Of a DNA stretch of 64,000 bases, positions 3-61,810 are shown piece after piece. Source of the DNA: Thermoplasmata archaeon (GTDB taxonomy: Archaea > Thermoplasmatota > Thermoplasmata > UBA10834 > DTMW01); the NCBI GenBank assembly GCA_038852105.1, contig JAWCKK010000005.1, positions 1,899 to 65,898 of the forward strand, read 5' to 3'. The position numbers and the translations under genes are program-made. Positions within the stretch are counted from its first letter, which is position 1. Each line of letters begins with the position of its first letter. A model generated the notes under the pieces. That model searched no databases, had not been told where the DNA came from, and saw only the letters and a list, made by a program, of their open reading frames with translations.

Positions 3-2657
3 TTGGAGGATAAGGACAAGGGCGCGCATTACAGCCGCGGACTCGTCCTGATGGAGCTTCATCGATATGAGGAGGCTGCTGCCAGTTTTGGAAAAGTGAT
101 AAACCTGGATGGAAACGACACTGACGGAATGATGCAATTGGGGAACGCCCTCTTTAAGTTGGATAGACTCCAGGAAGCACTCGACTGCTTCTCAAAACTA
201 TCATCGATGAAGCCGAACGATTTCGCCCCGCTAATCAAGCAGGCCGAGGTCCTGCTCAAGATGGGCAGACCGAGGGACAGCATATCTCCACTCTCTGCGG
301 CGCTCAAGATATCTCCAGATTCACTGGCGGCACTGAGGCTGATGAAAGAGGCGAGCATGAAGCTTGGGGATAACGATCAGGTGGTGAAGATATGCAATGA
401 CATCCTCAGGCTCGATCCGAAGGATGCCGATACCCTGGTTGACAAGGGCAAGGCGAACATGAACCTAGAAAGATACAGGGACGCGGTGGCGAACTTCGAT
501 ATGGCCATCGATCTCCGTCCGGCCAGCATCGGCATCTACAAGCTGAAGGAGGCCGCGCTGATAGAGCTTGGGGACAATGAAGGGATAATCGCAGTTGGAG
601 AGAAAATCCTCGCGATGAGCCCCGGCGACAGACAGACGATGATAAATATCGCCCTCGCGCACGAGAGAATGGACAATTTCGAGGACGCTTTGAAAGTATA
701 CGACACGATTCTGCTGTCGAATCCGAACGACGCAGAGATAGCCAACCGAAAGGGAGAGATATTGCTCGTGATGGATAGACCGGCTCAGGCGGCTGAGGCA
801 TTTGCGAATGCGCTGAGCACCTCTCCGAAGAGCCCTGTCCTCTTGAACAATCTCGGAAAGGCGATGATGAAGCTGAGGAGGACCGACGAGGCTCTAAGGT
901 ATTTCAGAGAAGCGATAGGCATCAATCCGAAGGAGGCGGAGTACCGCGTGAACGAGGGCAGGGCCCTTGCAGCCGAGGAGAGGCTCGAGGAGGCCATGCA
1001 GTCCTTCGAGACCGCATTGTTGCTCAAGCCAGGAGATTATCAAGCATTGAAATACAAGGGCAACCTGCTGCTGAGAATGGGGAAAGCGTCCGATGCTTTG
1101 AAAAGCTTCGAGAAGGCATTGGAATCGTCAAAGGGCGATAAGGATCTATTCAGGAATATGGGGAAGGCATCGGAACTCCTTGGAAGGACCCGCGAAGCGA
1201 TTGCCCACTATGGACAATGCCTCGACGAGGACCCCTCGGACAAGGCGGTATGGACGAGGATGGGGCAACTGCGCGCGTCCTTGGGCGAGCACAAGGAGGC
1301 GATCGATTGCTTCGACAAGGTCATAAGCATGGGCTCAGAGGATCCCACAGCATGGCTGAGCAAGGGGATGTCTCTCGAGGCAATGGGGAAGCTCGAAGAG
1401 GCAGTCCAGGCATACGACCAGGCTATCGGCATAGATGCGAACATCGCCGAAATCTGGGAGAAGAAGGGCTCGGCTCTGCTGAAATTGTACAAGCCGGAGC
1501 AGGCCTTGAGAGCCTTCGAGCACGCAACTGCGCTAAATCCTTCAAGCGAAGGCGCGAAGAAGGGGTTGCAGGAGTCGGAGAAGCTCGTCAGGGAGCTGAA
1601 GATCGAAGATTACGCGAGAGCGGTGCTGGATTTCGAATATGCCCATAGGAGACCCGTGACGAAGGAGGAGGCGTTCAGGATAGCCGGCATCCCGTATGCC
1701 TTCCTCGATGACGTCCTTGCATATATCCAGGCTAGAGTTGATGTAAACATATCGGAACTCACGCCCGATGAAATCAACGCGTTCGAAGAGGCGTCGAGAG
1801 AGATACTGCTGAGAGCCTACGACGAAGGCAGTCTTGAGACCCACGGACTCAGTCTGGCAGACATAATCCGGAACTTTCCGGATTACAAGATTTCGACCGC
1901 GAAAAAAATACTCGCTTACATCCAAACGGTAAGCGATATGACGTTCTCAGATAAGAAATCCGGCGATCCTGAGACCGAGCACCTCTTGAGAGCCGCGCTG
2001 GATCTTCCGGACACGGAAAAGAACGTCCTCGGGATAATGCGCAACCTGAACTTGGGGGTCATGAAGGCCAGGCGACTCGTGACTATTCTGCAGACGTTCA
2101 GGGGCGGAGGATATGAGACCCCGACATTGAGCCTCCGAAAAATAGTGACCGAGGGGTTCGGAGGCGAGAGAATCTCGACAACGGAAAGGGTCGGGTATGC
2201 CCCCGAGGTTAGAAGGCGGGAGACGGAGGTATCCGAAGAACCGGAGGAGATTGTCAAACCTGCAAGAAAGGAGATCGGCGGCAGGGAAAGAATCGAAGAG
2301 GAACTGGAAACGGTTGCTCCTTCGAGACGCAGAAAAGAGGAGGTCGAGAGGACTCATCGAGGTCATCCGGCGGAGAAGGGCGTGAGCAGAGGGACAGGGC
2401 TGGACCGCGATACTTCCTCGATAGAAGGCAGAAGATGCCTGTTCCACGGAGGCATCGCCATCGGGCGATGCATGAGCTGCAAGGCAATCTTGTGCAAGGA
2501 GTGCATCAGAGGCGTGTCCAACTGCCCGCGCTGCGGTTCACCGCTTTCAGAAACCGCATCGGCTGAAGAGGAGGCTCGAGAGGAAAAGAGACCGAAAGAA
2601 CCGCCAGAGAAAACGAAAGAGCGCGAGGAGAAACAGCGCGATTTTTCGAGATTGTGA
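3..2657 (+). CDS. TPR-repeat protein with a C-terminal zinc ribbon; the N-terminus probably lies beyond the window edge
   Basis: More than 15 consecutive 34-aa TPR-like units with the A/L/Y-rich helical pattern (e.g. ALFKLDRLQEALDCFSKL, AEVLLKMGRP). The C-terminus carries CMSCKAILCKECIRGVSNCPRCGSP, a CxxC..CxxC zinc ribbon, after a highly charged RE/K-rich linker. The ORF begins at window position 3 with a TTG, so the 5' end is probably truncated by the window. Confidence 0.8.
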   Translation: MEDKDKGAHYSRGLVLMELHRYEEAAASFGKVINLDGNDTDGMMQLGNALFKLDRLQEALDCFSKLSSMKPNDFAPLIKQAEVLLKMGRPRDSISPLSAALKISPDSLAALRLMKEASMKLGDNDQVVKICNDILRLDPKDADTLVDKGKANMNLERYRDAVANFDMAIDLRPASIGIYKLKEAALIELGDNEGIIAVGEKILAMSPGDRQTMINIALAHERMDNFEDALKVYDTILLSNPNDAEIANRKGEILLVMDRPAQAAEAFANALSTSPKSPVLLNNLGKAMMKLRRTDEALRYFREAIGINPKEAEYRVNEGRALAAEERLEEAMQSFETALLLKPGDYQALKYKGNLLLRMGKASDALKSFEKALESSKGDKDLFRNMGKASELLGRTREAIAHYGQCLDEDPSDKAVWTRMGQLRASLGEHKEAIDCFDKVISMGSEDPTAWLSKGMSLEAMGKLEEAVQAYDQAIGIDANIAEIWEKKGSALLKLYKPEQALRAFEHATALNPSSEGAKKGLQESEKLVRELKIEDYARAVLDFEYAHRRPVTKEEAFRIAGIPYAFLDDVLAYIQARVDVNISELTPDEINAFEEASREILLRAYDEGSLETHGLSLADIIRNFPDYKISTAKKILAYIQTVSDMTFSDKKSGDPETEHLLRAALDLPDTEKNVLGIMRNLNLGVMKARRLVTILQTFRGGGYETPTLSLRKIVTEGFGGERISTTERVGYAPEVRRRETEVSEEPEEIVKPARKEIGGRERIEEELETVAPSRRRKEEVERTHRGHPAEKGVSRGTGLDRDTSSIEGRRCLFHGGIAIGRCMSCKAILCKECIRGVSNCPRCGSPLSETASAEEEAREEKRPKEPPEKTKEREEKQRDFSRL

Positions 2658-11827: not shown

Positions 11828-14800
11828 TCAGAATTCCAAGGTCGCACCGCAATTGCCGCATTTCCTGGTCCTCTTGGCGCACGCGAGATGGGCAATGCTG
11901 TTGCACTTGTTGCAAATAGCTATGTCGAACCCTGGCTTTATCTTGCCGCTACAGGAGGCGCATTTCGCAGGCTCGGTAGCGCGCGCGATTCTCGCAGTGG
12001 GCTCTTTCGGAAGGACTATGACATCGCTCTTTGCGCTGAACTGATATTCTTTGCCGTCGAAGATTCTCTTGGCGGTGACCGTCACGGAAATCTGCGCGTC
12101 CCCGATGCGCCTCGGTACTACAGGGACAGAGATTCTCCTCGTCTCCCCTGCCTTCAATGGGGCAACCTCTGGGACGGACTCGACGTCCATATTGCTCCCG
12201 AAGAACTCGAGCTTGAGGTCCTTTGCCAGCGCCTTCCCCTTGTTTGCGAGCTCGATATCGATCATCGCTCTTTGGTCCTGCTTCAGCTCGACCGGTAGAA
12301 GGGATACAGAGACATCAGGGTTGAACCTATCCATGCTGGCCTGTATGTTTTCCCTGGCGTCCTTCAGAAGTTCGATAGCCGACGAGTAATCGCTCTCTCG
12401 CTCTATCTCCGCCATTGCAATCAGCCGGTCGCTCTCGCGGGTAGGGATTCCGAACCGCTTCGCAACGGTCACAGCACTCTCGGCGGCATACTTGGCGTCA
12501 AGATAATCCTTGTGCAGCGATTCGATTTTTGAGAGCAAGGATTCGGATTCGATTATCGACTTGAACGAAAGCTCGTACTCACCCTCTTCCATCATCTTTT
12601 CGATCTTCTTCAGCTCCTGCTCGACAATCGCCACGGACGCCCCGCTCTTTGCCACGACGGAGCTCTTTGCTCTTATGTCGCTAATCGCAGAGTATAGTTT
12701 TTCCTTGAGGTAGCTCTCGACGCTTTGGCTTGTTTTCTGCGTCTCCTCAAATGCCACATCCCAAAGGCCCTCTCTTGCGGATACCTGAGCCGCATCGAGC
12801 ATTGCGCGGTAATCGTTATCGTCAGGAAGCCCTAGGCTCGACGCCAAATCGAGCAGTATCTCTGCCTTGGATAACTTTTCGTTGATAATCTTCTCGAGCT
12901 CTACAGATATCAGTCGCTCGCCGTCGATGCAATACTCCCTGCACTCCGTGAACGCGCCGTTCTGAAGCGCCTCCTCGGCCTTCTGCCGTATCTTTTCTAT
13001 CTCTGCGAGTTCCAGGCCTATCTTTCTCAATCTGGACAGACGGTCGGTCAGAGAATTCATGTCGAGCCTGCATCCCTCCGCCTGACGTCTGATGCGCTCG
13101 ATTTCGTCTCCTACGGATATCGATAACTCGATGGCGCTTTCGAATTTCTTCTCGCGCATTGCCTCTTCGGCTTTCTCGTATATTTCCTTGGCCGCTGCTA
13201 CGGCCAGCATATCTTTCTCGGCGCTCGATATCTTCTCTTTTGCAACACCCAGGGCTCCCATCGCGAGCGAACGCTGCAAATCAGCCCTTTCGAGCTCCTG
13301 CTCACACGAAATAATCTTCTTGACGGCCTCCTGGAAATTGGCAACCTCAAAGCTGCTCTTCGCCTCATCAAGCAAAGACCTTGCATCATCGACGTATGTG
13401 CCGTCCTTCTCGGCGTAAGTTATCCTTCTTGCCAATTTCTGCAGGAGTCCTTGGAGATTCTTCTTGGCTATTTCAGATGCCTCATTCGAAATCTTCCTTG
13501 CGAGCTCGAAAGCAATTGCATATTTATGACTGTTCAACGAATCGACAGCCTGAGCGAGTATCGCGCGTGGTTCGGACATGTCTATGCCTATCATCTCAGC
13601 GTCCCGTATGCGCTCCTTCGCTATCCTTATCTCGAACGCGCTCTTCGAACTCAGATCTCTGATCTGGTCGATTTCCTCTCTCGCGGATTTTGCACTTTTC
13701 AGGCAAGACTCGTATTCCTGTTGCTCGAATTCATTCCTTGCCTGCTCCAACAGCTTCTCAGGGCGGGAAGTATCGACCCCGACATTCTTTGCATCGGCTA
13801 TGAGAGTGGCAATCGATGCGATCTCCTCTTCGGACTTCGATTTCAGGAGCTCGTCGAGTTCGGCCCGGGCTTTCTTCGCGGATGCAAGAGCGAGGTCGTA
13901 GTTTCTCTCCTTCATCGCGGCCTTTGCCTCTTCCAAAGATTGCCGCACCCCTTCCGGAGTCAGGTTCTCGGAATCTGTGAATCCCAGAGATACCTTGAGC
14001 GACATGATCAGCTTGGCGGCAAGATACATCCCCATTAGTTTTTCGAGTATGTTCTCCGCTTCCGCTATCTTCCGCTCGGCGTCATCTATGCTCAGGCTGG
14101 CTAAATCGCTCTTTGACTCTTCCAGCAATTTCGCTGCGGCCGAAACATCGATATTATTCTTCGCCGCCTCGGATAGCAGTTCCTCGCATCTGCTCAGCTT
14201 CCCCAGCAAAATCTGTTGTTCCTGTGTGAATCTATTGATTTCGCTCAGAGACTTTGAAGACGTCTGATAGGACGATGAGTATTCTCCGGCCTCGAGGAGC
14301 TCCTTTGCCTGCTTGTAGTACGCTCTCCACTTCGTGGTATCCATGGAGTTCGACTTCGCGCTGTCGAGCACCGCCTTGAGAGAGAATAGCGCCTTTTGAG
14401 CGACCTCTTCAAGAGCCCTATCGGCATCCTGTATCGTTTCTTTCGCCGTTGCGACTGCAACTTCGAGCACGCCCTTCTGAAGAGCCTCGTCCGCCTTCTT
14501 GACCATCAATCGGAGGTCGGACGCATCAATGCCAGCTGCTTCGACCTCGGAAATTTTTATCTCGGCGTCTCCGATCAGCCGTTTGGCTTCGTCTATGCCG
14601 CGCTTTTCTAGGTTCTCCTTAATGTCTGTGATTCTAGAGAGAGCATCGATGTACTGCGATGAATAAATCAATTGCTTCGCGTCGTTCAAGCTCGCCCGAA
14701 ATTCCGTGACGTCGAACGATTTTGAGCAATCGTCAAGGAAGGATTCCAACGCCGATGCAGTATCGGTCAGAACCTCATGATATGCCTTATTCGAAGCCTC

Positions 14801-16348
14801 GATGCTCATTACCGCCCGCCTAAACGCCTCGAGGGAGTTTAGCTCGGAAATCTCTTCGTTCGCAATCCTGAGCTGTTCCTTTGCCTCGGTGGGGTCGATC
14901 CCCAACTGCCCTGCAATCGAGATCAGGCTCTCGGCGTCGAGTATTTTCTCCTGGGCAACCTTTCTGACGTGCTTCTCTATCGCCTCAATCCCGGACTTGG
15001 CCTTTGCGTCTGCTTGAACGAAATCCTTGTTTGCGAGCGCGGTTCTGACCTGGCCGAACATGTTGACATCGCTGGGGATTTCGATACCCGCGTCTTCCGC
15101 CTGCTTGATCATCATGGCAAGTTTCTCGAGACCGCTCTGAGCGTTCCTGAAGGCTGAGAGAATCTCGGTTACCTCCTTGTCCGCCTGCTCTGCGGCCGCG
15201 ATGGCCTCCTCGAACAGCCCCTTCTGAAGCTTATCTCTAGCCTCGTTGAGTGTCGTTATTGGTTTTCCGATATCGAGGTTCAATTTTTTCGCGAGGACGA
15301 AATTGTCCTTCGATTTCGATATGGCTTGAAGAACTATCTTGAACTGGGCATCCTTAAGAGCGCTCCTCGCTTTCTCAATAGATTTGGTTGCTTCAGCGAT
15401 GTTCTTGTCCCTCATCGCTTTGCTCGCCGCCTCGATGAGCGCCTGGGCGGCCTCAGTGTCTCCTTCGTGCCTTTTGACTATCCGGATATCCTCCCGAAGC
15501 TTTCGGATATCCTCAAGAATCTTGCTGGAAGTCGCCTTCTCGCATTCGCTTTGCGCGCGCCGGACGTAGCTCGCAGCCTCCTCGAATTCCATGGATTCGA
15601 GGCTCTCGCGGGCCTTGTCTATGTATTCCCTCAGTTTCGAGACATCTGTGCCCAGGTCCTCAGCAGCCAGCACGCTGTCTTCGGCCGAATCAATATCCGC
15701 CTTTATCCGCGACTTGACAATATCGGTGGCTGATGCAAGCAGAGAGTTTACAGTGGCGATTGCGGCCCTGTAATCTTCGGACTCTATCATCTCTTTCGTG
15801 TCGCGAAGCTCCCTCTGGAGATCCTCGACGTTCTCGCCGATATCCTTCGCTTTCAGAATGATCTGCTGGGCCTTAGAGTAGGTCTTGGCATAATGCTCGT
15901 GAAGGGCCTTCTGGGAGAGATCGTAGGTCTCCTCGGCGAGCTTTATCGTCTCGTCGAAATCATCTTTATCCATGGAAGATTTGACGTCGGCGATCAATTG
16001 CTTCAACTGCGACGCCTCATCTCCGGATTCCGTCACAATCTGGACAATCTCATCTGCGCCCTTCAAAATCGATAGAATCCTTTCTTTGAAAATCTTCTTC
16101 GAGGTCTCGACCGCGCGCTCCGATTTATCCAACGCGAGATCGAAATCCTTCGATTCGAGAGCCGCATTTGTCTCTGCGATGGCCTTCTTCCCGAGGTCGA
16201 TATCGGCGTTGAGCTTCTTGCAACGCTCCAGTATTCCTTCGGCCACTTGCAGACGCGCTTCTGCATCGGCCTTTTTCTTGGACGCCTCCTTTGCCTTTTG
16301 CTCTATTTGCTTGGCCAACTGGAGGCTTTTCAAATAGCTACCTGCCAA
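11828..16348 (-). CDS. Giant (about 1506 aa) tandem-repeat alpha-helical protein with a C-terminal beta-sandwich-like domain and zinc ribbon
   Basis: A single uninterrupted 4.5-kb ORF. About 20 repeats of roughly 70 aa each carry a conserved aromatic-then-Ala-rich helix (e.g. ESKDFDLALDKSERAVE, MRDKNIAEATKSIEKARSAL, KERNYDLALASAKKARAEL, REKKFESAIELSISVGDEI) followed by a G[IV]D.S-type turn (GIDPTE, GIDASD, GVDTSRPE, GIDMSEP). The C-terminus has a beta-rich segment (ETRRISVPVVPRRIGDAQISVTVTA) and CASCSGK...CNKCN...CGNCG. There is no N-terminal signal peptide. The start codon is uncertain: a TTG at 16348, with the first ATG about 126 codons in. Confidence 0.7.
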   Translation of the reverse strand: MAGSYLKSLQLAKQIEQKAKEASKKKADAEARLQVAEGILERCKKLNADIDLGKKAIAETNAALESKDFDLALDKSERAVETSKKIFKERILSILKGADEIVQIVTESGDEASQLKQLIADVKSSMDKDDFDETIKLAEETYDLSQKALHEHYAKTYSKAQQIILKAKDIGENVEDLQRELRDTKEMIESEDYRAAIATVNSLLASATDIVKSRIKADIDSAEDSVLAAEDLGTDVSKLREYIDKARESLESMEFEEAASYVRRAQSECEKATSSKILEDIRKLREDIRIVKRHEGDTEAAQALIEAASKAMRDKNIAEATKSIEKARSALKDAQFKIVLQAISKSKDNFVLAKKLNLDIGKPITTLNEARDKLQKGLFEEAIAAAEQADKEVTEILSAFRNAQSGLEKLAMMIKQAEDAGIEIPSDVNMFGQVRTALANKDFVQADAKAKSGIEAIEKHVRKVAQEKILDAESLISIAGQLGIDPTEAKEQLRIANEEISELNSLEAFRRAVMSIEASNKAYHEVLTDTASALESFLDDCSKSFDVTEFRASLNDAKQLIYSSQYIDALSRITDIKENLEKRGIDEAKRLIGDAEIKISEVEAAGIDASDLRLMVKKADEALQKGVLEVAVATAKETIQDADRALEEVAQKALFSLKAVLDSAKSNSMDTTKWRAYYKQAKELLEAGEYSSSYQTSSKSLSEINRFTQEQQILLGKLSRCEELLSEAAKNNIDVSAAAKLLEESKSDLASLSIDDAERKIAEAENILEKLMGMYLAAKLIMSLKVSLGFTDSENLTPEGVRQSLEEAKAAMKERNYDLALASAKKARAELDELLKSKSEEEIASIATLIADAKNVGVDTSRPEKLLEQARNEFEQQEYESCLKSAKSAREEIDQIRDLSSKSAFEIRIAKERIRDAEMIGIDMSEPRAILAQAVDSLNSHKYAIAFELARKISNEASEIAKKNLQGLLQKLARRITYAEKDGTYVDDARSLLDEAKSSFEVANFQEAVKKIISCEQELERADLQRSLAMGALGVAKEKISSAEKDMLAVAAAKEIYEKAEEAMREKKFESAIELSISVGDEIERIRRQAEGCRLDMNSLTDRLSRLRKIGLELAEIEKIRQKAEEALQNGAFTECREYCIDGERLISVELEKIINEKLSKAEILLDLASSLGLPDDNDYRAMLDAAQVSAREGLWDVAFEETQKTSQSVESYLKEKLYSAISDIRAKSSVVAKSGASVAIVEQELKKIEKMMEEGEYELSFKSIIESESLLSKIESLHKDYLDAKYAAESAVTVAKRFGIPTRESDRLIAMAEIERESDYSSAIELLKDARENIQASMDRFNPDVSVSLLPVELKQDQRAMIDIELANKGKALAKDLKLEFFGSNMDVESVPEVAPLKAGETRRISVPVVPRRIGDAQISVTVTAKRIFDGKEYQFSAKSDVIVLPKEPTARIARATEPAKCASCSGKIKPGFDIAICNKCNSIAHLACAKRTRKCGNCGATLEF

Positions 16349-16628
16349 TGTCCTCGACCTCTTGCGGCTGATTTCTTCGAGACGGCCGACTCACATCGTG
16401 CATTTCATTACGATGCGAACTCATCTCTGCTCGCGTGTAAATCTGAAACGGAACATTTCTATCATGCATTCATTGCAGATATAGCATTCAGATTACTCGC
16501 GCCTAATCATGTATCGACAGAAGGAAAATCAGCCACCCTAAGGATATAAATATGTCGGGGATGTCATCAATTTCGAACAGGACTTGCCAGGAAGAAGAGG
16601 GTGTCCGAGCGAACACAATGCCATCTGC

Positions 16629-17540
16629 CTATTCTCGAAGATTGTTTCTTTCCAAGGACTTTATTTCGTGATACAATCTTGACATCACGGGACATTCTAT
16701 CCCCAGCTTTGCCCCGAATCGCAGAATAGGTCCGCAAATCGCATCGATCTCTGTCCTCTTTCCCCTTTCTATGTCCGAGAGCATGCTTGAACGGTTGTCT
16801 GCAGTCTTCGTCGCGACGTCGGTCATGTATCTTACCACATCTGGAGGATCGAGTGCAATACCCATCCCTTCCGCAACCCTCGAACCTTCCAGACAAACAG
16901 CGATTGCCTGCTCGTTCAACTTCTTATCATCGACTATCATTCCATTCCTGCATCTATGAATCGCCGTCAGTGGGTTTATTGCGGCATTTACAATCGCCTT
17001 GGACCAAACTATGCCGGTGATGTTCTCGGTCGATCTCGTTCTGACCCCCGCATCATGCAAGATCCTTTCGGCAACATCAAGAGCCGCGGATTCTTGCGCA
17101 AGGGAACCAATGGCAATCTCGCCTTCGGCGACATAACGAATGAAGCCCGGTCCGACTCTATGAGCAGCCAGACTGGTGACGCCGATGACCACAGCGCTTC
17201 TATCATAATACTTGCCGAGTGTTTCGGCATTTCCGATTCCGTTCTGCACCGTCACCACGCATCCGTTTCTGACCAGATGCCTGACAGTGCATTTTGCCGC
17301 AATTTCCGTGTCATACGATTTCGTGGTAACGAATATCGCATCGAACTGCCTGCTATCTTCGATGACTTCAAGAGCAGGTATTTTGAAGCACCCATTCATC
17401 AGGCCTTCGAGTCTGAGGCCTCGCCGCTGAATCTCGCTCAGATGATCACCACGCGTTATCAGAATTACGTCGTGGGCGCGAGAAAGAAGAACGCCCATGA
17501 CTCCGCCGAGTGCCCCGGCACCGAAAATGAGAACTCTCAT
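16629..17540 (-). CDS. panE: 2-dehydropantoate 2-reductase (ketopantoate reductase, ApbA/PanE family)
   Basis: Rossmann N-terminus MRVLIFGAGALGG, the conserved Lys/Asn region (VTTKSYDT ... NGIGN) and the C-terminal ApbA_C pattern (SSMLSDIERGKRTEID). Confidence 0.75.
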   Translation of the reverse strand: MRVLIFGAGALGGVMGVLLSRAHDVILITRGDHLSEIQRRGLRLEGLMNGCFKIPALEVIEDSRQFDAIFVTTKSYDTEIAAKCTVRHLVRNGCVVTVQNGIGNAETLGKYYDRSAVVIGVTSLAAHRVGPGFIRYVAEGEIAIGSLAQESAALDVAERILHDAGVRTRSTENITGIVWSKAIVNAAINPLTAIHRCRNGMIVDDKKLNEQAIAVCLEGSRVAEGMGIALDPPDVVRYMTDVATKTADNRSSMLSDIERGKRTEIDAICGPILRFGAKLGIECPVMSRLYHEIKSLERNNLRE

Positions 17541-29113: not shown

Positions 29114-29368
29114 TCAAATTTTTCAATCAGATTTCATTGGTTGAGTTGGCGTTATGTTAGAGCTTCTATAAATAGCTTACTATCTTTGAAATTAATCGAA
29201 ATATTGAATGGCCAGATAAGTAAGAATCGTTCGAAACATGGGCGTGATTGAACTGTCGGCAATTCCTGCAAATTTTTGTGATTGCCTCTGAAAATCCATT
29301 AATTGAATTGATGTCAGAATTTACATCTACGAGTGTCGCAATCCCGAACGCAATTAGGGAGGCTCTCC

Positions 29369-30790
29369 ATGGCAAGAGGTAGACTCAGCATTCTATTCTC
29401 CGAAGAAATCGAACGCATCCATTCAATTTCTATTAGGATATTGGAAGAAATAGGAATAGTTGTTAAAAGCGAAAATGTTGCGAAGATGCTGCTCGATGCG
29501 GGAGCTATCAGATCTCCTAATGGGAAACGGATATTGATACCGGAGAGGATGGTAAAGGCAGCTTTGGCTAGCGTGCCCAAGTCAATCCTTCTTGCCGGAC
29601 GGAATGGCGTCAAGGACATGACTATCCCTTCGAACATACTCTATGCCGCGACGGGCGGAGAGGGGGTCTACCTGAAGAACCTGGTCAAGGGAACCACTCG
29701 ACCGACGTCGATTCAGGACGTGAGAGATGTCTCAAGAATCGTGGAGAGTCTCCCCCAGATAGACTTCTTATGGGGACTTGTCGGTGCGTTAGATGTCCCT
29801 GATCATCTAAAGACCACGATGGAAACAAAGACAGCCATTCAATATTGCAGCAAGCACTGGCAAGGAGGCAGCTTGAGCGCAGAGGAGGCAAAGAGAGACA
29901 TCGACCTAGCGGCAATAGTGGTCGGCGGCCACAAGGAACTAGCAAGGAGGCCGATCATCTCTGCCGTTGAATGCCCCCTTTCACCGTTGACTTTCGAGAA
30001 GGGACTGGTCGAAGCCCAGGTTACGTATGCCAAGGCGGGCATACCGGTCGTCGCAATGGTGGCTAATATGGCTGGCCTCACATCTCCAATCACGCTATCT
30101 GGAACTGTGACGCAGACCAATGCCGAGAATCTTGCTAGCCTGGTGATATCCCAGACCGCGAAGCCAGGATCGCCTTGGATTTACAGTAGCGATTCCGTCC
30201 CTGCGGACTTGAGGACCGGCTCGATTGATTATGGAGCGTTCGAGGCACCATTGATGAGAGCCGCCGCGGGAGAGATGGGCAGGCATTACGGATTTCCAGT
30301 CATGTGCGCGGGCTTGGGCATCGAGGAGACCTCGATTAGCCTCAGCAGCATCCGAGAAGGGGTGCCGTTCATGCTAAACGAGGCTTTGGTGCAGTCCGAC
30401 CTCGGCTCAGGATTCGGCGGGATAGACCAGGCGGCGGGTGCCGCGTTCGAGCAGATAATCGTGGATGCGTGGATTTGGGAGATTGCACGAGAGATCGCGA
30501 GGGAGTTCGATACCGACGAGGACGCAATAGCGTTCGACACAATACGCGAAGCTTCGGAGGACATGAATTTCCTGACGAAGAAGCACACGATGGCACGGTT
30601 CAGAAAGGAATCGCTGGCAACATCGAAACCCTCTGCCGCAATCACAGGAAGACAGGAAAGTGCTGAGCGCGGAGCGGTCGTCAAGATGGCGCAGAAAGAG
30701 GTCGAGAAGATACTTTCGAAAGAGCCGAAGATGGTCGTCCCGAAGGATATCGCGAAAGAAATGGACGAATACGTCTCAAGGATAAGATGA
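29369..30790 (+). CDS. MttB-superfamily (trimethylamine methyltransferase-like) methyltransferase, uninterrupted (non-Pyl type)
   Basis: Homologous along its full length to the five paralogs at 57.2-64.0 kb (e.g. the conserved GGHKELARRPIISAVECPLSPLTFEKG, AGIPVV and HGNxFLTxxHT blocks). No in-frame stop. I set the start at the internal Met (MARGRL). Confidence 0.8.
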   Translation: MARGRLSILFSEEIERIHSISIRILEEIGIVVKSENVAKMLLDAGAIRSPNGKRILIPERMVKAALASVPKSILLAGRNGVKDMTIPSNILYAATGGEGVYLKNLVKGTTRPTSIQDVRDVSRIVESLPQIDFLWGLVGALDVPDHLKTTMETKTAIQYCSKHWQGGSLSAEEAKRDIDLAAIVVGGHKELARRPIISAVECPLSPLTFEKGLVEAQVTYAKAGIPVVAMVANMAGLTSPITLSGTVTQTNAENLASLVISQTAKPGSPWIYSSDSVPADLRTGSIDYGAFEAPLMRAAAGEMGRHYGFPVMCAGLGIEETSISLSSIREGVPFMLNEALVQSDLGSGFGGIDQAAGAAFEQIIVDAWIWEIAREIAREFDTDEDAIAFDTIREASEDMNFLTKKHTMARFRKESLATSKPSAAITGRQESAERGAVVKMAQKEVEKILSKEPKMVVPKDIAKEMDEYVSRIR

Positions 30791-31448: not shown

Positions 31449-32552
31449 ATGAGCCTGATAGGCGCTGAGACGTTCAACTGGGAAGATGCCTACAAACGAA
31501 ACAACATCATGTGGAGAGTTCCCCGGAATATAAAGTTCAATGACAACATAGTCGTCAGGGAGGACGAGATGGCGGTGTTCTTCAGGGACGGCAAGGCCCT
31601 GGATTACATCGACCGGCCGGACAGGTATGCCCTTTCTTCCCTGAACGCACCGATCGTCGGGAAAATCGTGAAGTTCTTGTCCGGTGTGCAGCAGCAGGCA
31701 GAGGTCATATACATCCAGAAGAGGGTTTTCGACGGAAAGTTCGGCAGCAAGCAGCCTTATCAGTTCAGGGACAAGGAGTTCGGGATGGTCAATCTCCGGG
31801 TCTTCGGGGAGTTCCGATACAAGGTCGCTTCGCCGATGAACTTCGTCAACCAGTTCTGCGGTACCTTCAATTTCACCACGAGCGCGGAGGTCGAGGAGCG
31901 AATCAAGGAGCAGATGGTCATCCTCGTGTACGACGCGCTTGGGGACATGAAGAACGAGGGCATGGGCGTCGCGGACATCGCTGCGAACCTAACGAACATC
32001 GAGCAAGCTGTCCTTTCGAGATCGAAGGAGCACTTCGAGTTGTACGGCATCTCGATAGACAAGTTGTCCGGGCTCTATATCTCAATGCCAGAGGAGGTCC
32101 AGAAGGCGGTCGATACGCGCGCCTCGATGCAAATCCTTGGCGCGAACTACATGCAGTATCAGACTGGACAGGCGATGAGAGACGCCGCGGCAAACCCGTC
32201 CGGCGGAGCCGCGGGCGTCGGTGTCGGTGTCGGCGCCGGGATAGGCATGGGATATCAGATGATCGGTGCGATGCAGCAGCCCGCCGCGGCTCCGACGCAA
32301 ACCGCGGCCGCACCAGGGATAGCCTGTCCCAAATGCGGCACGGTCAACCCTGGCGGAGCGAAGTTCTGCTCGTCTTGCGGCTCGAAACTGACTGTCGATA
32401 TGACCAACTGCCCAAAGTGCGGGAAGCAGGTCCCGATGGGCAAGTTCTGTCCTGAGTGCGGCGCGCCGCTGGGGACGAAGAAGTGCTCGAAATGTGGCGC
32501 GGAAGTCCCCGCAGCGGCGAAGTTCTGCCCTGAGTGTGGAAAAGAGCCATGA
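31449..32552 (+). CDS. SPFH-like (Band_7_1 / YdjI-COG4260 family) protein with four C-terminal tandem zinc ribbons
   Basis: The N-terminal pattern FNWEDAY...IMWRVP...IVVREDEMAVFFRDGKALDYIDRPDRYALSSLNAPIV matches the characteristic N-terminus of the YdjI/Band_7_1 family. It is followed by a G/A-rich linker (GVGVGVGAG) and four CPxCG..KFC..CG repeats. A Shine-Dalgarno-like GGAGGTG precedes the ATG. Confidence 0.75.
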   Translation: MSLIGAETFNWEDAYKRNNIMWRVPRNIKFNDNIVVREDEMAVFFRDGKALDYIDRPDRYALSSLNAPIVGKIVKFLSGVQQQAEVIYIQKRVFDGKFGSKQPYQFRDKEFGMVNLRVFGEFRYKVASPMNFVNQFCGTFNFTTSAEVEERIKEQMVILVYDALGDMKNEGMGVADIAANLTNIEQAVLSRSKEHFELYGISIDKLSGLYISMPEEVQKAVDTRASMQILGANYMQYQTGQAMRDAAANPSGGAAGVGVGVGAGIGMGYQMIGAMQQPAAAPTQTAAAPGIACPKCGTVNPGGAKFCSSCGSKLTVDMTNCPKCGKQVPMGKFCPECGAPLGTKKCSKCGAEVPAAAKFCPECGKEP

Positions 32553-32592: not shown

Positions 32593-33336
32593 TTGGCGTC
32601 GGTCAAATGCGTGAAGTGCGGCGCAAGCGTCCAGTTCGACTCTGGGACGAAGTTCACAAAATGCCCCTATTGCAGTTCGCAGATATACATCGATAGATCG
32701 GGCGCGGGGTTCTATTACATCTTGACCTTCATGTCCGACCAGAACGGCGCGATAGGCATATTCAGGCGGTGGGCGGCGGGATCGACCAAGGCCAAAGATT
32801 TGGACAAGTTGGCGCAGATAGTCTCGATAAAGAAGCAATATTTCCCGGTATATCTTTTCAAGAGAGATAACCAGGGGGTCGAGCAGGTCTTCGTCGAGCC
32901 CGCGGGCTCAACGACCTTGCCGGGCCTTCACAGCCTCAAGGTCCCAGCGGGGGATCTGAAGATATTCGATGCGAGCTTCGATATCGGGGGCGCGGAGCTC
33001 ATCCAGCCCGATATCGAGATGCTTTCATACTTGAACAAGCTGCCTGGAAAGCCGAAGGAACAGGCGCTCGTCTATTTCCCCATCTGGACAATTATCTACG
33101 AATTCCAGGGAAAACAATACACGGCTGTCATCGACGGCGTCTCGGGAGAGGTATTCTCGGGCGAATTCCCCGTGCGCGCCTCGGCGCCGTACATGGTCGT
33201 CGCCGTGCTCGGTTTCCTCGCGTTCATCGGAGAAGGGTTGCTCGCGACGGCGAACATCCCGATTGCGGTTATCCTCATGGCCGTCACGGTGATAGCGATT
33301 TTCTTCATTGCGCTATTTGTCGCGAGGAGGATGTGA
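32593..33336 (+). CDS. Zinc-ribbon membrane protein, paralog A (N-terminal CxxC..CxxC, C-terminal two transmembrane helices)
   Basis: N-terminal VKCVKCGASV...CPYCSS, repeated Y-x-P-[VIF]-[YW] motifs (YFPVYLF, YFPIWTIIYEF, then TAVIDGVSGE), and hydrophobic C-terminal segments (MVVAVLGFLAFIG, IAVILMAVTVIAIFFIALFV). TTG start after GGAGGT. Confidence 0.6.
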   Translation: MASVKCVKCGASVQFDSGTKFTKCPYCSSQIYIDRSGAGFYYILTFMSDQNGAIGIFRRWAAGSTKAKDLDKLAQIVSIKKQYFPVYLFKRDNQGVEQVFVEPAGSTTLPGLHSLKVPAGDLKIFDASFDIGGAELIQPDIEMLSYLNKLPGKPKEQALVYFPIWTIIYEFQGKQYTAVIDGVSGEVFSGEFPVRASAPYMVVAVLGFLAFIGEGLLATANIPIAVILMAVTVIAIFFIALFVARRM

Positions 33337-33339
33337 TCC

Positions 33340-34338
33340 ATGCCGGACATATCAGTAGGCCTCAATTGCCCGACGTGCGGCGGAGCGATCCAGATATCCG
33401 AGGGAGACAACACCGTCATCTGTCAATACTGCAATTCGACTCTCTTCGTTGAGGGCGACCAGGGCGTCAACACCATTGCCTTCAAGAGCAAGTTCCAGCG
33501 AGAACACGCCATTGCGGCAACATTCGATTGGTGGAAGAGAGGGCTCAAGGCACGCGACCTGCCTAAGACCGGGAAGATATTGGAGGCGTATCCGATCTAC
33601 TTGCCCTTCTGGAGCGCGACCACGAGGGTCGCCGGCTGGATATGTGGTTACGAAGAGCGGAGGCACACCGATCAGCGCGGGAACGTGCGAGTCGAGAGGA
33701 TACCGAAAGAGGTGATGATCCTCCAGGACTTCGCCTTCTCGGAGATTGCCTGCGACCCGGGCGACATCGGGATAGCCCATCTCAGGAACTTTCAGGGTGA
33801 GACTACCTTCGAGGACTTCGAGATGATCCCGACCTTCGAATCGACCACGAGCAAGGATGACGCGCTCGCGCATGCGAGGGCGGACGCCATAAATCGCGCG
33901 AGGGCTGGCGCGCGCGTGCCAAATGTGACCTTCGAGCGCCTCCATGCGTTCCCGAAGCGCCTTTCGCTAATCTATTATCCTGTCTGGGTCGTGAGATACA
34001 GCTACCGCGACAGGATGTACATGGACACTGTTGACGGGGTGACGGGAACGATACTGTCCGGAAGAGCGCCGGGCGACCCGCTATATCAGAGCTTGGCGAT
34101 AACCGGGGGCACATCTATCGGAGGATTGATTGCCGCCGGTGGGATACTCGCGGGCCAGGCGGATTGGAGGATCGCTGCGGCAGGGGTCGTCGTCGGAATC
34201 ATAGTGTTGGCTGTGACGTATCTGTTCTTCAGGCACGGCTCGGAGATTACGCAGGGAGATTTCAAGGCGAAAAGGCCTTCGGCCAAAGAAACAATCGCGA
34301 GCATTCAGCAGATAGCGAACCAGCTGGGGAGGGTGTGA
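33340..34338 (+). CDS. Zinc-ribbon membrane protein, paralog B
   Basis: N-terminal CPTCGGAI...CQYCNS, the motifs YPIYLPFWSA and YYPVWVVRYSY then DTVDGVTGT, and a C-terminal hydrophobic stretch (GGLIAAGGILAG...AAGVVVGIIVLAVTYLFF). ATG after GGAGGATG. Confidence 0.6.
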   Translation: MPDISVGLNCPTCGGAIQISEGDNTVICQYCNSTLFVEGDQGVNTIAFKSKFQREHAIAATFDWWKRGLKARDLPKTGKILEAYPIYLPFWSATTRVAGWICGYEERRHTDQRGNVRVERIPKEVMILQDFAFSEIACDPGDIGIAHLRNFQGETTFEDFEMIPTFESTTSKDDALAHARADAINRARAGARVPNVTFERLHAFPKRLSLIYYPVWVVRYSYRDRMYMDTVDGVTGTILSGRAPGDPLYQSLAITGGTSIGGLIAAGGILAGQADWRIAAAGVVVGIIVLAVTYLFFRHGSEITQGDFKAKRPSAKETIASIQQIANQLGRV

Positions 34339-35028: not shown

Positions 35029-35649
35029 ATGCAGGCGGAGACGAAAAGAGCAGGATTAATACCGCTCATTCTTCTCAGGGGCAGGACGCTTCTTTTCAAG
35101 GAATATTCGAAAAAAGCGCTCAGCGAACTCTCAAAGGACTTGAGACGCAAGAATTTCGAGAAGATATACATCATGGACTTGGACGGCCTGGAAAGGAATA
35201 GGCCCCAGTTGGACATCGTCCAGCGATTATCGGACGATTTTGGGATCTTGTACGAAGGAGGACCGCGGAGGGGGGCTCACATCATCGACTTCATCATGGC
35301 TGGGGCTGAATTGGCCTACATGAATACGGCCACCCTTGAATCTCTCGATGAGCTGGAAATCGCGTTGTCGTACACCGATAATGTCGGCCTGAAGGTTGAC
35401 TGGAATCGGGGCATGATCGGCGATGATTTCAAGGATAAGACGTTGCAGGGCGCAGTGCAGGAATGCATGGGACTAGGCATCAGGGATTTCGTCATTCCCG
35501 TAGAGGTGATGCCTCAGCTAAGAAGCATGCGCTCCCTTCCGAACATCGTGCTGCGGGCAATCGCCGACCGCCCAGGTGATGAGAGAGCGCGCGACATCGA
35601 CGCGGACTCGATAATCGTCAATTACGAGTTGATAAGAGATGGCAATTGA
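35029..35649 (+). CDS. HisA/HisF-family (beta/alpha)8-barrel-like protein
   Basis: LIPLILLRG and IYIMDLDGLERNRPQLDIVQRL...EGGPRRGAHIIDFIMAGAE parallel the HisA blocks (IPAIDL..G, LHLVDLDGA, GGGIR). At 206 aa it is shorter than canonical HisA. Confidence 0.4.
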   Translation: MQAETKRAGLIPLILLRGRTLLFKEYSKKALSELSKDLRRKNFEKIYIMDLDGLERNRPQLDIVQRLSDDFGILYEGGPRRGAHIIDFIMAGAELAYMNTATLESLDELEIALSYTDNVGLKVDWNRGMIGDDFKDKTLQGAVQECMGLGIRDFVIPVEVMPQLRSMRSLPNIVLRAIADRPGDERARDIDADSIIVNYELIRDGN

Positions 35650-57220: not shown

Positions 57221-58645
57221 ATGGCGAAGACGATACTGAGGTTCTTGGAGAAGGACGAAGAGGAACTGATACACGCGCAGAGCATCAAGGTGCTGGAGGA
57301 GCTCGGAGTGATGATACACAGCGACCAGGTGCTCGATATGCTCGGCGCGAAAGGCGCGATAATAGACAAGAAAAAAAAGATAGCCAGGCTGCCAGAGAGC
57401 CTCGTTCTCGAATCACTGAAAAAAGCACCTAAAGAGTTCGTGCTTTGTGGAAGGGATCCGAAGAAGGATGTGGCTCTTCCTGCCAGGGAGTTTCCGTACA
57501 TATCGACCAATGGACTTTCAATATACATGACCGACCTTGAGACCGGCGAGAAGCGTCCAACGACCAGGAAGGATCTCGCGATGTTCGCGAGACTGGCGGA
57601 TTCATTGGATGCCGTCAGTTTCTTCTGGCCACAGGTGACCGCATCGGAGGTCCCGGAGATGGCTCATAATGTGCACGAGCTCTGGACGTCGCTGCAGAAC
57701 ACCGTCAAGCATGTCCAAGGAGATTCCGTCAACGCGGAGGACGCGCGGATGCAGATAAGGCTCGCGGCTCTTGTCGCGGGCGGAGAGAAAGAGCTCCGGA
57801 GACGGCCGATATTCTCTGTGACCGACTGTCCGATAGCGCCTCTGTCGTTCGAGAAGGGCGCCGTAGAGGCGCAGGTCGAGTTCGCCAGAGCAGGAATACC
57901 GATATCCTCGATGTCTATGTCACTCTCTGGCATGTCGTCGCCGGTGACCATCGCCGGGACTATCGTAAACGCGAACGTCGAGAACCTCGCGAGCATAACC
58001 ATCACGCAGACTGCAAACCCCGGAGCACCTCACCTGTACGCCTCGGAGTCGACCCCGATCGATATGAGCTCGGGGATGATCAACTACAAGGCTAACGAAT
58101 GCCCGATGATTGCATCGGCGCTCGCGCAGATGGCAAAAAGATACAGATTGCCATGCGTCGTGGGCCAGTGGGGCGCGGACGGAGATGAACCCGGACTGCT
58201 CGCATCGTTCAACGAGCTCGCAACAATCGCGATGACGATGCTCAGCGGTACAGACTGCTGCTCCGGGATGGGAGGTCTGGAATCGGCGAAGGGTGGCTCG
58301 CTGGAGCAGATGGTGATAGACGCATATTTGTGGGAGAACTTCAAGCCGATACTTCGGAACATGACGATCAACGAGGAGATGATGGCTTTCGATGTCATGA
58401 AGCAGGTAGGGCACGGGAACTCGTACCTGAGCCATCCGCATACCGCGAAGTTCCTCAGGAAGGAGCTCTTCTTCCCGGACAAGAAAAAGTTGGCCTGGGA
58501 GGCAACGCTATCGACGAAAATGGTCGGAGAGGCTCGGGAAATTGCAAAAAAGACCCTGAGGGATCACCGCGTAGAGCCGATAGACAGGGACATCATCAAG
58601 GAAGGGGATGAGATGATCCGCGAGTTCGAGAGGAGATTGCGATAA
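57221..58645 (+). CDS. MttB-superfamily methyltransferase paralog 2 (uninterrupted)
   Basis: 474 aa. Conserved blocks shared with the other paralogs (LLDxxEExLIHxxSIxxLExxGV, GGxxELRRRPIFS, FEKGAVEAQVEFAxAGIP, HGNSYLSHPHTAKF). No in-frame TAG. Confidence 0.85.
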   Translation: MAKTILRFLEKDEEELIHAQSIKVLEELGVMIHSDQVLDMLGAKGAIIDKKKKIARLPESLVLESLKKAPKEFVLCGRDPKKDVALPAREFPYISTNGLSIYMTDLETGEKRPTTRKDLAMFARLADSLDAVSFFWPQVTASEVPEMAHNVHELWTSLQNTVKHVQGDSVNAEDARMQIRLAALVAGGEKELRRRPIFSVTDCPIAPLSFEKGAVEAQVEFARAGIPISSMSMSLSGMSSPVTIAGTIVNANVENLASITITQTANPGAPHLYASESTPIDMSSGMINYKANECPMIASALAQMAKRYRLPCVVGQWGADGDEPGLLASFNELATIAMTMLSGTDCCSGMGGLESAKGGSLEQMVIDAYLWENFKPILRNMTINEEMMAFDVMKQVGHGNSYLSHPHTAKFLRKELFFPDKKKLAWEATLSTKMVGEAREIAKKTLRDHRVEPIDRDIIKEGDEMIREFERRLR

Positions 58646-58688
58646 TGTCGCGATAAATATCCATGATTTGAAGGAAAGGAAGGTGGGG

Positions 58689-60119
58689 ATGTTGGCAAAA
58701 GCTAGGTTGAAATTGTTGGACAAGTCGGAAGAGGACCTGATACACGCATCGAGCATCGAGACGCTCGAAAAAATCGGCGTCCTGGTGAGAAGCCCCACGG
58801 TGCTGAGGATGCTCGGCAACGCGGGCGCGAAGATCGATGAGAGATCGATGATTGCGAAGATACCCGAAGGGATGGTCAACGAGGCGATCAAGAAAGCTCC
58901 GAAGAGCTTCGTCCTGTGCTCGCGCGACGGAAAGCACGACCTGAGGCTCCCCGCGGATCCGTTCCCATACGTCGGCTCGAACGGCATCGGCACATATATG
59001 ACCGACTTCAAAACGGGGAAGAAAAGGGAAACCACTCGAAAAGACATCGCGGACTTCGCGAGGCTGGCGGACGCGTTGACGGGGACAGATTTCTTCTGGT
59101 CGAACGTGACGGCCTACGACGTCCCCGAGAGGACGCACATGGTGCACGCGCTCTGGGTATCGCTCCAGAACTGCACGAAGAGCTACGGTACGCTCACGCT
59201 GAGCGCAGAGGACGCCAGGGCGCAGGTGGAACTCGCGTCGCTCATAGTAGGCGGGAAAGATGAGCTGCGCAAGAGGCCCATCTTCCACTCGCTCTGCTGC
59301 GTCATCGCCCCCCTCTCGTTCGAGAAGGGAGCGATCGAAGGCCAAGTGGAGTTCGCGAAGGCAGGCATACCTGTCATATCGATGTCGATGTCCCTCTGCG
59401 GGATGTCCGCTCCTGTCACATTGGCGGGAACTGTCACAAACGCGAACACCGAGAATCTCGCGAGTCTCGTGATAACCCAGACAGCGGCCCCAGGAGCCCC
59501 TCACATATACTGCTCAGAATCGGAGCCGGCGAGCATGGTCACCGGGAACATAGTATACGAGGCCCCGGAGGCCCCGCTGATCGCGGCGGCGGCCGCTCAG
59601 ATGGCTCACAGGTACAACCTGCCTACCTTTACGGGCAGCTGGGGAGCGAACGGCGAGGTGCCAGGCGTGCCACTCTCGTTCTGCGAGCTGTCGGCAATCG
59701 CGCTGACGATGCTCACGGGCACGGACATGGCAGCGGGCTCTGGCGGGCTCGAAGAGGCGAAAGGCGCCTCGCTCGAACAGCTGGTCATAGATTCATACCT
59801 ATGGGAGAACTATAGAGCTTTCCTCAGGAAGTTCGAGGTCTCCGAGAAGACGATAGCTCTGGACGTCGTGAGGGAAGTGGGACACGGGAATTCCTTCCTT
59901 ACGCACCCACACACTGCCAGGAATTTCAAGAAGGAGCTCTTCTTCTGGGACAAGGAGAAATCGAAGTTCGAGGCGACGAGATCGACGGCAATGGTGCCGG
60001 AGGCGAAGAAGATAGCGAGCAAGATATTGAAAGAGCACAAGCCGGAACCGATAGATCCGAAGATCGTCGAGAAGGGAAACAAGATAATCGCCGCTCTCGA
60101 TAAAGAATTATCAACCTGA
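58689..60119 (+). CDS. MttB-superfamily methyltransferase paralog 3 (uninterrupted)
   Basis: As above. Start set at MLAKARLKLLDK, after a GGAAGGTGG Shine-Dalgarno-like element. Confidence 0.85.
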   Translation: MLAKARLKLLDKSEEDLIHASSIETLEKIGVLVRSPTVLRMLGNAGAKIDERSMIAKIPEGMVNEAIKKAPKSFVLCSRDGKHDLRLPADPFPYVGSNGIGTYMTDFKTGKKRETTRKDIADFARLADALTGTDFFWSNVTAYDVPERTHMVHALWVSLQNCTKSYGTLTLSAEDARAQVELASLIVGGKDELRKRPIFHSLCCVIAPLSFEKGAIEGQVEFAKAGIPVISMSMSLCGMSAPVTLAGTVTNANTENLASLVITQTAAPGAPHIYCSESEPASMVTGNIVYEAPEAPLIAAAAAQMAHRYNLPTFTGSWGANGEVPGVPLSFCELSAIALTMLTGTDMAAGSGGLEEAKGASLEQLVIDSYLWENYRAFLRKFEVSEKTIALDVVREVGHGNSFLTHPHTARNFKKELFFWDKEKSKFEATRSTAMVPEAKKIASKILKEHKPEPIDPKIVEKGNKIIAALDKELST

Positions 60120-60248
60120 TCGGCCAGCTGAAAGAATCCATCGAGGGGTTTCACAAACGCCATGCGCGGTTCCGACGGGGAAACGCTTAAGAAATGCTCG
60201 TCGTTAGGGGGAACCGGACTCAGCGGACGCTGAGGGGAGGTGTTGAGC

Positions 60249-61682: not shown

Positions 61683-61810
61683 ATCCAAGCCCCTTGAAAA
61701 ACCCTTTCGATTGTTTCTGATTTGTTCCGAATTCGAAAGAATATTAAGCCTTCGAACTTTAGGGGTAGTTTGCTAAGGCGCTGTTGCGGCCTAGCGGGAG
61801 GTAGTTGAGC

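Follow-up and report, generated by a model that had tools for sequence, protein, structure and literature searches.

A giant Thermoplasmata protein of 22 short helical repeats with a CARDB and RING-type head, possibly a fixed-length cytoplasmic rod

The window analysed here is a 64,000-nucleotide stretch of contig JAWCKK010000005.1 (assembly GCA_038852105.1, positions 1,899 to 65,898 of the forward strand) from a Thermoplasmata archaeon. On its minus strand lies a giant open reading frame (ORF) whose 1,506 codons are uninterrupted by internal stops (Table 1). The product has a calculated mass of 167 kDa and an isoelectric point (pI) of 5.1, is rich in Ala, Glu, Lys and Leu, and is identical to the GenBank entry 'MAG: hypothetical protein QW505_02770 [Thermoplasmata archaeon]'. 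An earlier reading made from the letters alone, referred to below as the sequence-only reading, had described a single genuine gene encoding a helical array, a CARDB/Ig-like module and a multi-Cys zinc finger, in that order, and both the gene and the order of its parts are upheld. No disruption of the frame, of the kind against which that reading had cautioned, was seen, and a frameshift or pseudogene artefact is ruled out since 28 homologues align one to one with the protein.

Most of the chain is an array of 62-64-aa repeats. The autocorrelation of residues 1-1335, scored with BLOSUM62, peaks at a lag of 62 (z = 8.1, 50 shuffles), and the comparison of the 28-homologue alignment with itself by HHalign gave shifted self-matches with E-values down to 6e-73 that cover residues ~3-1345. 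The offsets of these matches (60, 124, 186, 248, 310, 374 and so on to 1189) are multiples of about 62.5 aa. The repeats noticed from sequence alone are thus real, but their earlier count of about 20 and unit of about 70 aa give way to 21 full repeats and a half. Their consensus, [DENK]-[FY]-x-x-A...A...G-[IVLT]-[DE]-x-[ST]...LL..A, in which the G-[IVLT]-[DE] loop precedes a short helix, agrees with the motif that had been proposed (an aromatic helix with Ala and a G[IV]D-type turn). Scans of the whole protein against Pfam, NCBIfam and PADLOC returned only CARDB and Prok-RING_1 and assigned no repeat family, and PDB sequences gave no significant match either to the single protein or to profiles made from its two halves, the best being NUP96 (E 0.016).

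The array appears to be old. No tandem repeat was found in the gene at the DNA level (TRF), and paralogous repeats share a mean identity of only 17%; therefore the array is ancient and a recent expansion is ruled out. Orthologous repeats are 17-43% identical (mostly ~30%). Since they are closer to each other than paralogous ones, the array must have been fixed before the clade radiated, each unit having its own conserved surface.

AlphaFold2 (AF2) models were built for two overlapping halves from 13-sequence alignments, with a mean predicted local distance difference test (pLDDT) of 87.8 and a predicted template modelling score (pTM) of 0.36 for residues 2-760, and of 87.6 and 0.37 for residues 751-1506. 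In both halves each modelled repeat has a helix of ~40 aa that is joined through a G-x-D loop of five residues to a second helix of ~15 aa, and it closes with a G-x-[YF] turn of three residues. The last helix is of half length (residues 1321-1341) and is followed by an all-beta domain and then by a small finger. A bundle of ~60 residues can only be made from halves of the long helices together with the short helix, and a string of 22 bundles is therefore predicted. Each bundle would be an up-down-up three-helix unit in which the short helix packs with the second half of the long helix before it and the first half of the one after it, and neighbouring bundles would share a continuous helix on the principle of spectrin, EzrA and Ebh. 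The statement of the sequence-only reading that the repeat is neither TPR, HEAT, Sel1 nor spectrin holds at the level of sequence, where no Pfam repeat family matches at E <= 1, but not for the predicted topology, which is spectrin- or Ebh-like. In Embp and Ebh, two bundles with a shared helix span ~70 Å and the repeats are rod-like in solution (PMC7587433). On that analogy, the array would be ~65-75 nm long if straight, at ~30-35 Å per bundle. The N-terminal half model had no Foldseek match in the PDB at E <= 0.001.

In sequence and in repeat unit, the array differs from the known helical repeats with which it was compared. Its antiparallel Ala-rich helices and G-x-[YF]-x-x-A signature resemble those of TPR and Sel1 proteins, and weak, sub-threshold ANAPC3/TPR-like matches occur in some relatives. 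However, the TPR/Sel1 unit has 34-36 aa, as opposed to 62 aa with unequal helices (40 + 15), and since no such model matches at E <= 1 a TPR/Sel1 solenoid is ruled out. One relative of 2698 aa, P0204, fuses a true TPR array to 62-aa repeats. Spectrin repeats of ~106 aa and EzrA repeats of ~100 aa have three long helices, whereas in the 62-aa repeat the short helix has only ~15 residues; there is no match to Spectrin (PF00435) at E <= 1, nor an actin-binding or transmembrane (TM) domain in the protein. EzrA, with its N-terminal TM anchor, four to five spectrin-like repeats and FtsZ binding, is likewise not what is found here. SMC-like coiled coils have an ABC ATPase head and a hinge, while the giant protein has no SMC_N, hinge or AAA domain and its helices are broken every 62 aa. 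Ebh and Embp of Staphylococcus (PDB codes: 2dgj, 6gv5) are alike only in fold, without sequence similarity, and no FIVAR or GA Pfam match was found in the protein. They are extracellular, wall-anchored bacterial adhesins with a 126-aa unit of two unlike bundles (FIVAR/GA) and a variable copy number, in contrast to the one-bundle unit of 62-64 aa, the copy number fixed at 22, the archaeal cytoplasmic setting and the CARDB and RING end of the giant protein.

The length of the protein is nearly invariant. A first homology search found ~30 full-length proteins with 25-80% identity, all of 1,502-1,508 aa save two truncated calls, and the 28 homologues that were aligned (25-80% identity, 1496-1508 aa) required only 21 insert columns. 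A scan of one genome per GTDB species located 46 loci, all in metagenome-assembled genomes of uncultured Thermoplasmata/Thermoplasmatota, with ORFs of 1,502-1,509 codons. Full-length orthologues remain at 1,496-1,509 aa even at 25-33% identity; thus the repeat number is fixed, and the copy-number variation among relatives that had been put forward as a check is absent. Constancy within about a dozen residues at such divergence indicates that selection acts on the length as such, which is the case in molecular rulers and tethers. The gene is a vertically inherited, single-copy core gene that keeps its chromosomal position in ~46 species-level Thermoplasmata genomes.

A profile of 21 repeats, searched against 1.84 billion representative proteins, matched 387 at E <= 1e-3 and 153 at E <= 1e-10. 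The full-length matches are mostly of 1,440-1,540 aa with 13-21 detected units, and a minority are of 2,000-3,160 aa; the few named ones are all Thermoplasmata hypotheticals, and another search with a full-length profile brought in neither a named nor a cultured organism. Relatives at 20-25% identity align end to end and share the N-terminal motif and the CARDB and finger signatures, with specific signatures common in R3, R6, R17, R18 and R21. Among the wider relatives, the giants P0046, P0081, P0141 and P0201 (3,019-3,160 aa) have about twice the standard length, and the first three of them end in the same finger as the window protein. A distant paralogous class of ~2385 aa (P0035, P0036 and P0039-P0043) carries the same kind of repeats, with an N-terminal zinc ribbon, a mid-chain CARDB and a C-terminal DUF5915.

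Conservation along the chain is specific to position. The most conserved segment is followed by the RING (mean column entropy 1.10) and then by R6 and R15. R6 has the family-wide signature AQFxxVLxxIxxSxDxFVLAKKxGxDI...LNxxRxxL and is a candidate partner-binding site. In R17, Q1025 is invariant even in relatives at 20-25% identity. The most conserved segment itself, residues 1-25, opens the first long helix. As the leading half of that helix, residues 1-25 are predicted to pack against no other helix within the chain, and they show the lowest pLDDT of the model (61-78). Because residues 1-20 lack partners in cis and are modelled with low confidence, yet are the most conserved, they may serve for docking or self-association, much as the tetramerisation site of spectrin does.

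The start of the gene is well defined and weak. No ATG, GTG or TTG occurs between the in-frame TGA upstream and the TTG start, and so the protein cannot be longer. The homologues start at the same position, and this, together with the TGA and the conservation of the first residues, removes the doubt that had been raised about the N-terminus. Within the clade of ~1503-1509 aa (loci L002-L048 and the window, counting DNA-readable sequences only), TTG is used by 27 of 34 genes (33 homologous loci and the window, itself a TTG) and GTG by the other seven, with no ATG; one deep relative, L050, has an ATG. The TTG and GTG starts throughout this clade suggest selection for weak translation initiation, and with it a low copy number.

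The C-terminal end is a compact head of two domains. The beta-sandwich matches CARDB (PF07705) at residues 1344-1424 with 22.9 bits, just above the cut-off of 22.7, and the modelled fold agrees. For the finger the Prok-RING_1 model (PF14446) gives 27.8 bits (E 2.4e-6) at residues 1461-1497, below its cut-off of 29.1; homologues exceed it (P0031, 37.3 bits; P0062, 40.1 bits), and precomputed Prok-RING_1 matches are present in most of them. The eight ligands, C1463, C1466, C1479, C1482, H1487, C1490, C1497 and C1500, are invariant in sets of 28 and of 15 homologues, and their spacing, C-x2-C-x12-C-x2-C-x4-H-x2-C-x6-C-x2-C, is of the C4HC3 (PHD/RING-CH) type, from which a binuclear cross-brace coordination of zinc is predicted. 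A zinc-binding tail had thus been seen correctly, but it is a RING-type finger and not a simple zinc ribbon. Within an otherwise acidic protein, the sandwich, the finger, R1 (+4) and R6 are basic, and the Ig-plus-RING head has a pI of ~9. The fusion of Prok-RING_1 to a rod of 1,345 residues and CARDB is seen only in this family: a profile of the CARDB-RING module retrieved nothing from other architectures, its only matches being fragments of this family on short contigs. One protein of 266 aa on a contig of 943,905 bp, P0211, consists of little beyond the module; it could derive from a giant gene that is split or frameshifted, or be a head that exists on its own.

With such a finger, the protein might be a giant RING-type E3 ligase in which the finger recruits an E2- or E1-like (SAMP/ubiquitin-like) enzyme and the arm of 22 repeats recruits substrates. 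The finger resembles Prok-RING_1 and RING-PHD fingers in its eight C4HC3 ligands, in the RING-like spacing and in the short helix after the His (residues 1488-1494 in the model), and differs in the loop between ligands 6 and 7, which has only six residues. It is the second most conserved segment, and canonical-looking C-P-I-C and C-P-x-C-G pairs occur in many relatives, the second pair being C-x-C in most; profile matches to the RING-H2 ligases Arkadia/RNF165 are weak and non-significant (E 0.2-0.7). However, RING matches in the PDB remain below significance, and no gene for an E1, E2, ubiquitin-like or JAB protein lies in the window or beside the gene at the homologous loci examined. Moreover, some family members end right after CARDB, and in others a low-complexity linker rich in Pro, Ala and Gln replaces the finger. 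Since rod, N-terminal motif and CARDB persist in these relatives, the rod is the core of the family. Those who defined the prokaryotic RING families reportedly hold that not all of them act in ubiquitin-like pathways, which also counts against a ligase. A ligase function is therefore regarded as doubtful.

The protein is probably cytoplasmic, as had been supposed. It has neither a signal peptide nor a TM segment (Kyte-Doolittle means over 19 residues reach 1.34 at most) and its N-terminus is hydrophilic; together with the eight invariant Cys/His ligands, these features fit a cytoplasmic location. The most hydrophobic stretch, at the midpoint of the chain, contains a conserved MAMYLAAKxI motif. 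A secreted surface fibre or adhesin, in which CARDB would serve cell adhesion, might be considered because Ebh/Embp, which comes closest in structure among multi-repeat proteins, forms a rod outside the cell. It is very improbable: the protein lacks a signal peptide, a TM segment and any C-terminal anchor, and its hydrophilic N-terminus is conserved. A Cys/His finger with eight ligands would be expected in a cytoplasmic protein, and the repeat number does not vary as it does in adhesins.

A membrane-associated skeleton or division regulator of the EzrA or spectrin kind, with the rod lying under the membrane and a basic C-terminal anchor, is a further alternative. Many members of the wider family carry a basic C-terminal tail, KKK[LV]AL[KR][ILV](G), that resembles C-terminal membrane-targeting sequences and is kept even where the RING is lost (among them P0045, P0048, P0050, P0051, P0062, P0064, P0065, P0067, P0072 and P0079; L003:12482-12518). 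The tail could be a membrane- or partner-binding peptide. However, the window protein and its ~1503-aa clade do not have it and end in ...LEF or ...YSF, a TM segment is absent, and no FtsZ, SepF or Cdv gene lies nearby in the window. The weak start codon also fits poorly with an abundant lattice, and a skeleton of this type is considered unlikely.

Table 1. Features of the giant gene and of its upstream region (positions are those of the window)
Feature	Residues	Position	Strand	Remarks
Giant ORF	1-1506	11828..16348	minus	1506 aa + stop (TAA/TAG, 11828-11830); TTG start
TTG start codon	1	16346..16348	minus	first possible start after the in-frame TGA 17 codons upstream
Most conserved segment	1-25	16274..16348	minus	MAGSYLKSLQLAKQIEQKAKEASKK, begins MAGSYLKSLQLAKQ; mean column entropy 0.80
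Repeat array	3-1345	12314..16342	minus	21 full + one half repeat, 62-64 aa
Repeat starts, R1-R11	3, 63, 127, 189, 251, 313, 377, 439, 503, 564, 626			
Repeat starts, R12-R22	688, 751, 815, 877, 941, 1003, 1067, 1129, 1192, 1254, 1316			
R6	313-376	15221..15412	minus	best-conserved and most basic repeat; +7, pI 10
Most hydrophobic stretch (R13)	771-789	13982..14038	minus	LMGMYLAAKLIMSLKVSLG; chain midpoint; Kyte-Doolittle mean 1.34, below TM level
R17	1003-1066	13151..13342	minus	family-wide motif CExELERxxLQxxxA
Beta-sandwich, CARDB/Ig-like	1346-1456	11981..12313	minus	net charge +3
C4HC3 zinc finger, probably cross-brace (Prok-RING_1)	1457-1506	11831..11980	minus	net charge +5
Upstream intergenic region		16349..16628	minus	280 nt; reaches the stop of the PanE gene (16629-17540)
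Shine-Dalgarno-like GAGGA		16351-16355	minus	within the upstream intergenic region
Upstream box		16397-16410 (-62 to -49)	minus	TAATGAAATGCACG; resembles the AAAATGAT-AAC box of orthologues
Upstream ORF, 28 codons		16338-16424	minus	MSSHRNEMHDVSRPSRRNQPQEVEDIGR; ends 11 nt inside the giant ORF, overlapping the TTG start

The interval first delimited, 11828-16628, comprises the ORF together with the spacer that separates it from the stop of PanE/ApbA, a gene of the same orientation. Upstream regions of the orthologues, read from an alignment of 28 loci (L002:7926-8006 and the same region of 27 others), share a AAAATGAT-AAC box at about -75 nt, a TGYCAG ~25 nt downstream of it and a GGAGCTTGGTG at -16 to -6. 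These three boxes look like a promoter of the gene's own, a short leader or transcription start and a Shine-Dalgarno site, a pattern from which the gene appears monocistronic. The TTTATAT element noted from sequence alone lies at about -200 and is probably not the promoter. RNAalifold predicted no pairs in the 5' region of the 28 orthologues, and the hairpins seen by eye upstream of orthologues are therefore unsupported.

At most loci the gene follows Hel308, Cgi121, FTCD_N/FTCD and FTCD_C, and it is faced by convergent genes for PmbA, TldD, histidine ammonia-lyase (HAL), DUF35, thiolase and HMG-CoA synthase (HMGCS). Deep relatives without the RING have Cgi121 directly upstream and DUF35-thiolase-HMGCS downstream, and the window locus retains only the downstream DUF35 operon, the upstream genes being PanE/EndoV. 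A single deep lineage, represented by P0030 and P0202 (1506 aa each, 25-26% identity; L003:2756-7910 and L050:2-4664), has SMC-ScpA-ScpB ~90 nt upstream of the gene and in the same orientation. From this adjacency it might be proposed that the protein is a factor of chromosome organisation or segregation acting with SMC-ScpAB, whose basic head, R1 and R6 (pI 9-10 within a protein of pI 5.1) bind DNA while the rod bridges or spaces the sites. The adjacency is, however, limited to that lineage, as Cgi121/FTCD lies upstream in ~35-40 other loci and PanE/EndoV in the window, and the protein has no recognised DNA-binding domain and no ATPase or kleisin-like element. Such a role is rather improbable.

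The rest of the window is ordinary archaeal chromosome, with genes for TruD, Hef, an HMG-CoA synthase/thiolase/DUF35 operon, EndoV-MGMT, DnaK-DnaJ-GrpE, a thermosome subunit, glycine cleavage, HerA and several MttB paralogues. Near the giant gene, the window holds no genes of the ubiquitin system, of cell division or of defence, and an anti-phage defence system is ruled out, PADLOC-DB giving 0 families for the protein at E <= 0.1. The MttB-superfamily (trimethylamine methyltransferase-like) paralogues lie at 29333-30790, 57221-58645 and 58668-60119; 60240-61682 and 61805-63247 probably belong to the superfamily as well. Three or four of the paralogues form a tandem cluster. An SPFH/Band-7 protein fused to C-terminal double zinc ribbons is encoded at 31449-32552 (+) and is followed by three ORFs without Pfam matches (32593-33336, 33340-34338 and 35029-35649). 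At the left edge of the window, the ORF at 3-2657 (+) encodes a TPR array with a C-terminal Cys-rich finger, and the likeness of layout to the giant protein that had been noted is borne out; its finger, CLFHGG...CMSC...CKEC...CPRC, looks B-box or double-ribbon-like.

Taken together, the invariant length, the position-specific conservation, the modules at both ends, the cytoplasmic location, the single-copy inheritance and the weak start codon point to a structural element. The role of a spacer, tether or ruler, rather than that of an enzyme or adhesin, is the most likely one. It is proposed, with moderate confidence, that the protein is a fixed-length cytoplasmic rod that serves as a scaffold, tether or ruler, its two ends being the free conserved helix at the N-terminus and the basic Ig-plus-RING head. 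In this scheme, the gene product would be a structural protein of low copy number. Its ~20 N-terminal residues would dock onto a partner or onto another copy, the head would bind a partner of its own, which might be a protein, nucleic acid or an acidic membrane surface, and the individually conserved repeats R3, R6, R15 and R17 may be fixed docking sites along the rod.

Several points weigh against this proposal. The function is deduced from architecture alone, and the low pTM leaves the orientation of the repeats unfixed, so that the array may be straight, curved, superhelical or ring-shaped. CARDB (PF07705; PDB code: 3idu) is mostly found in extracellular or surface proteins, whereas here it sits between a helical rod and a zinc finger inside a protein predicted to be cytoplasmic. 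No binding partner is indicated by an operon at the loci examined, and the neighbours Cgi121/FTCD and PmbA/TldD/HAL/DUF35-thiolase-HMGCS look like conserved gene order and not like a functional module. Finally, an abundant cytoskeletal lattice would hardly be expected from a gene with so weak a start codon. Such a lattice belongs to a bolder version of the proposal, an archaeal counterpart of the spectrin-type rulers, in which the N-terminal half-helix would join copies into dimers or into a sub-membrane or nucleoid-associated lattice of defined mesh and the RING head would be an anchor or a true E3. Thermoplasmata include wall-less archaea. This version is thought improbable.

The giant protein represents a new sequence family, deposited but unannotated, whose repeat has no family model and was not found in the literature; searches on archaeal Prok-RING proteins, DUF5915, giant Thermoplasmata proteins and archaeal spectrin-like repeats brought up no relevant paper. 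While the architecture of a string of bundles is already known from spectrin, EzrA and Ebh, the combination of 62-aa units, a count that stays at 22, a place in the archaeal cytoplasm and a CARDB-RING tip is new. Even if the protein is only a generic scaffold, it would define a clean new repeat family worthy of a Pfam entry, and its unit, among the shortest natural repeats of this kind, may interest protein designers. Cytoskeletal and scaffold proteins of archaea are poorly known, and no description of a spectrin- or Ebh-like protein inside an archaeal cell was found; the gene occupies 4.5 kb of a small genome. A predicted rod of ~70 nm tipped with a RING and an Ig-like domain also offers a tractable case for the role of RING fingers in archaea without an obvious E2. 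If the spectrin-type ruler were to prove true, Thermoplasmata would possess a native length-defined cytoskeletal element or a giant RING ligase, and the rod-plus-RING layout of eukaryotic tethering and coat proteins would have been invented independently in this lineage.

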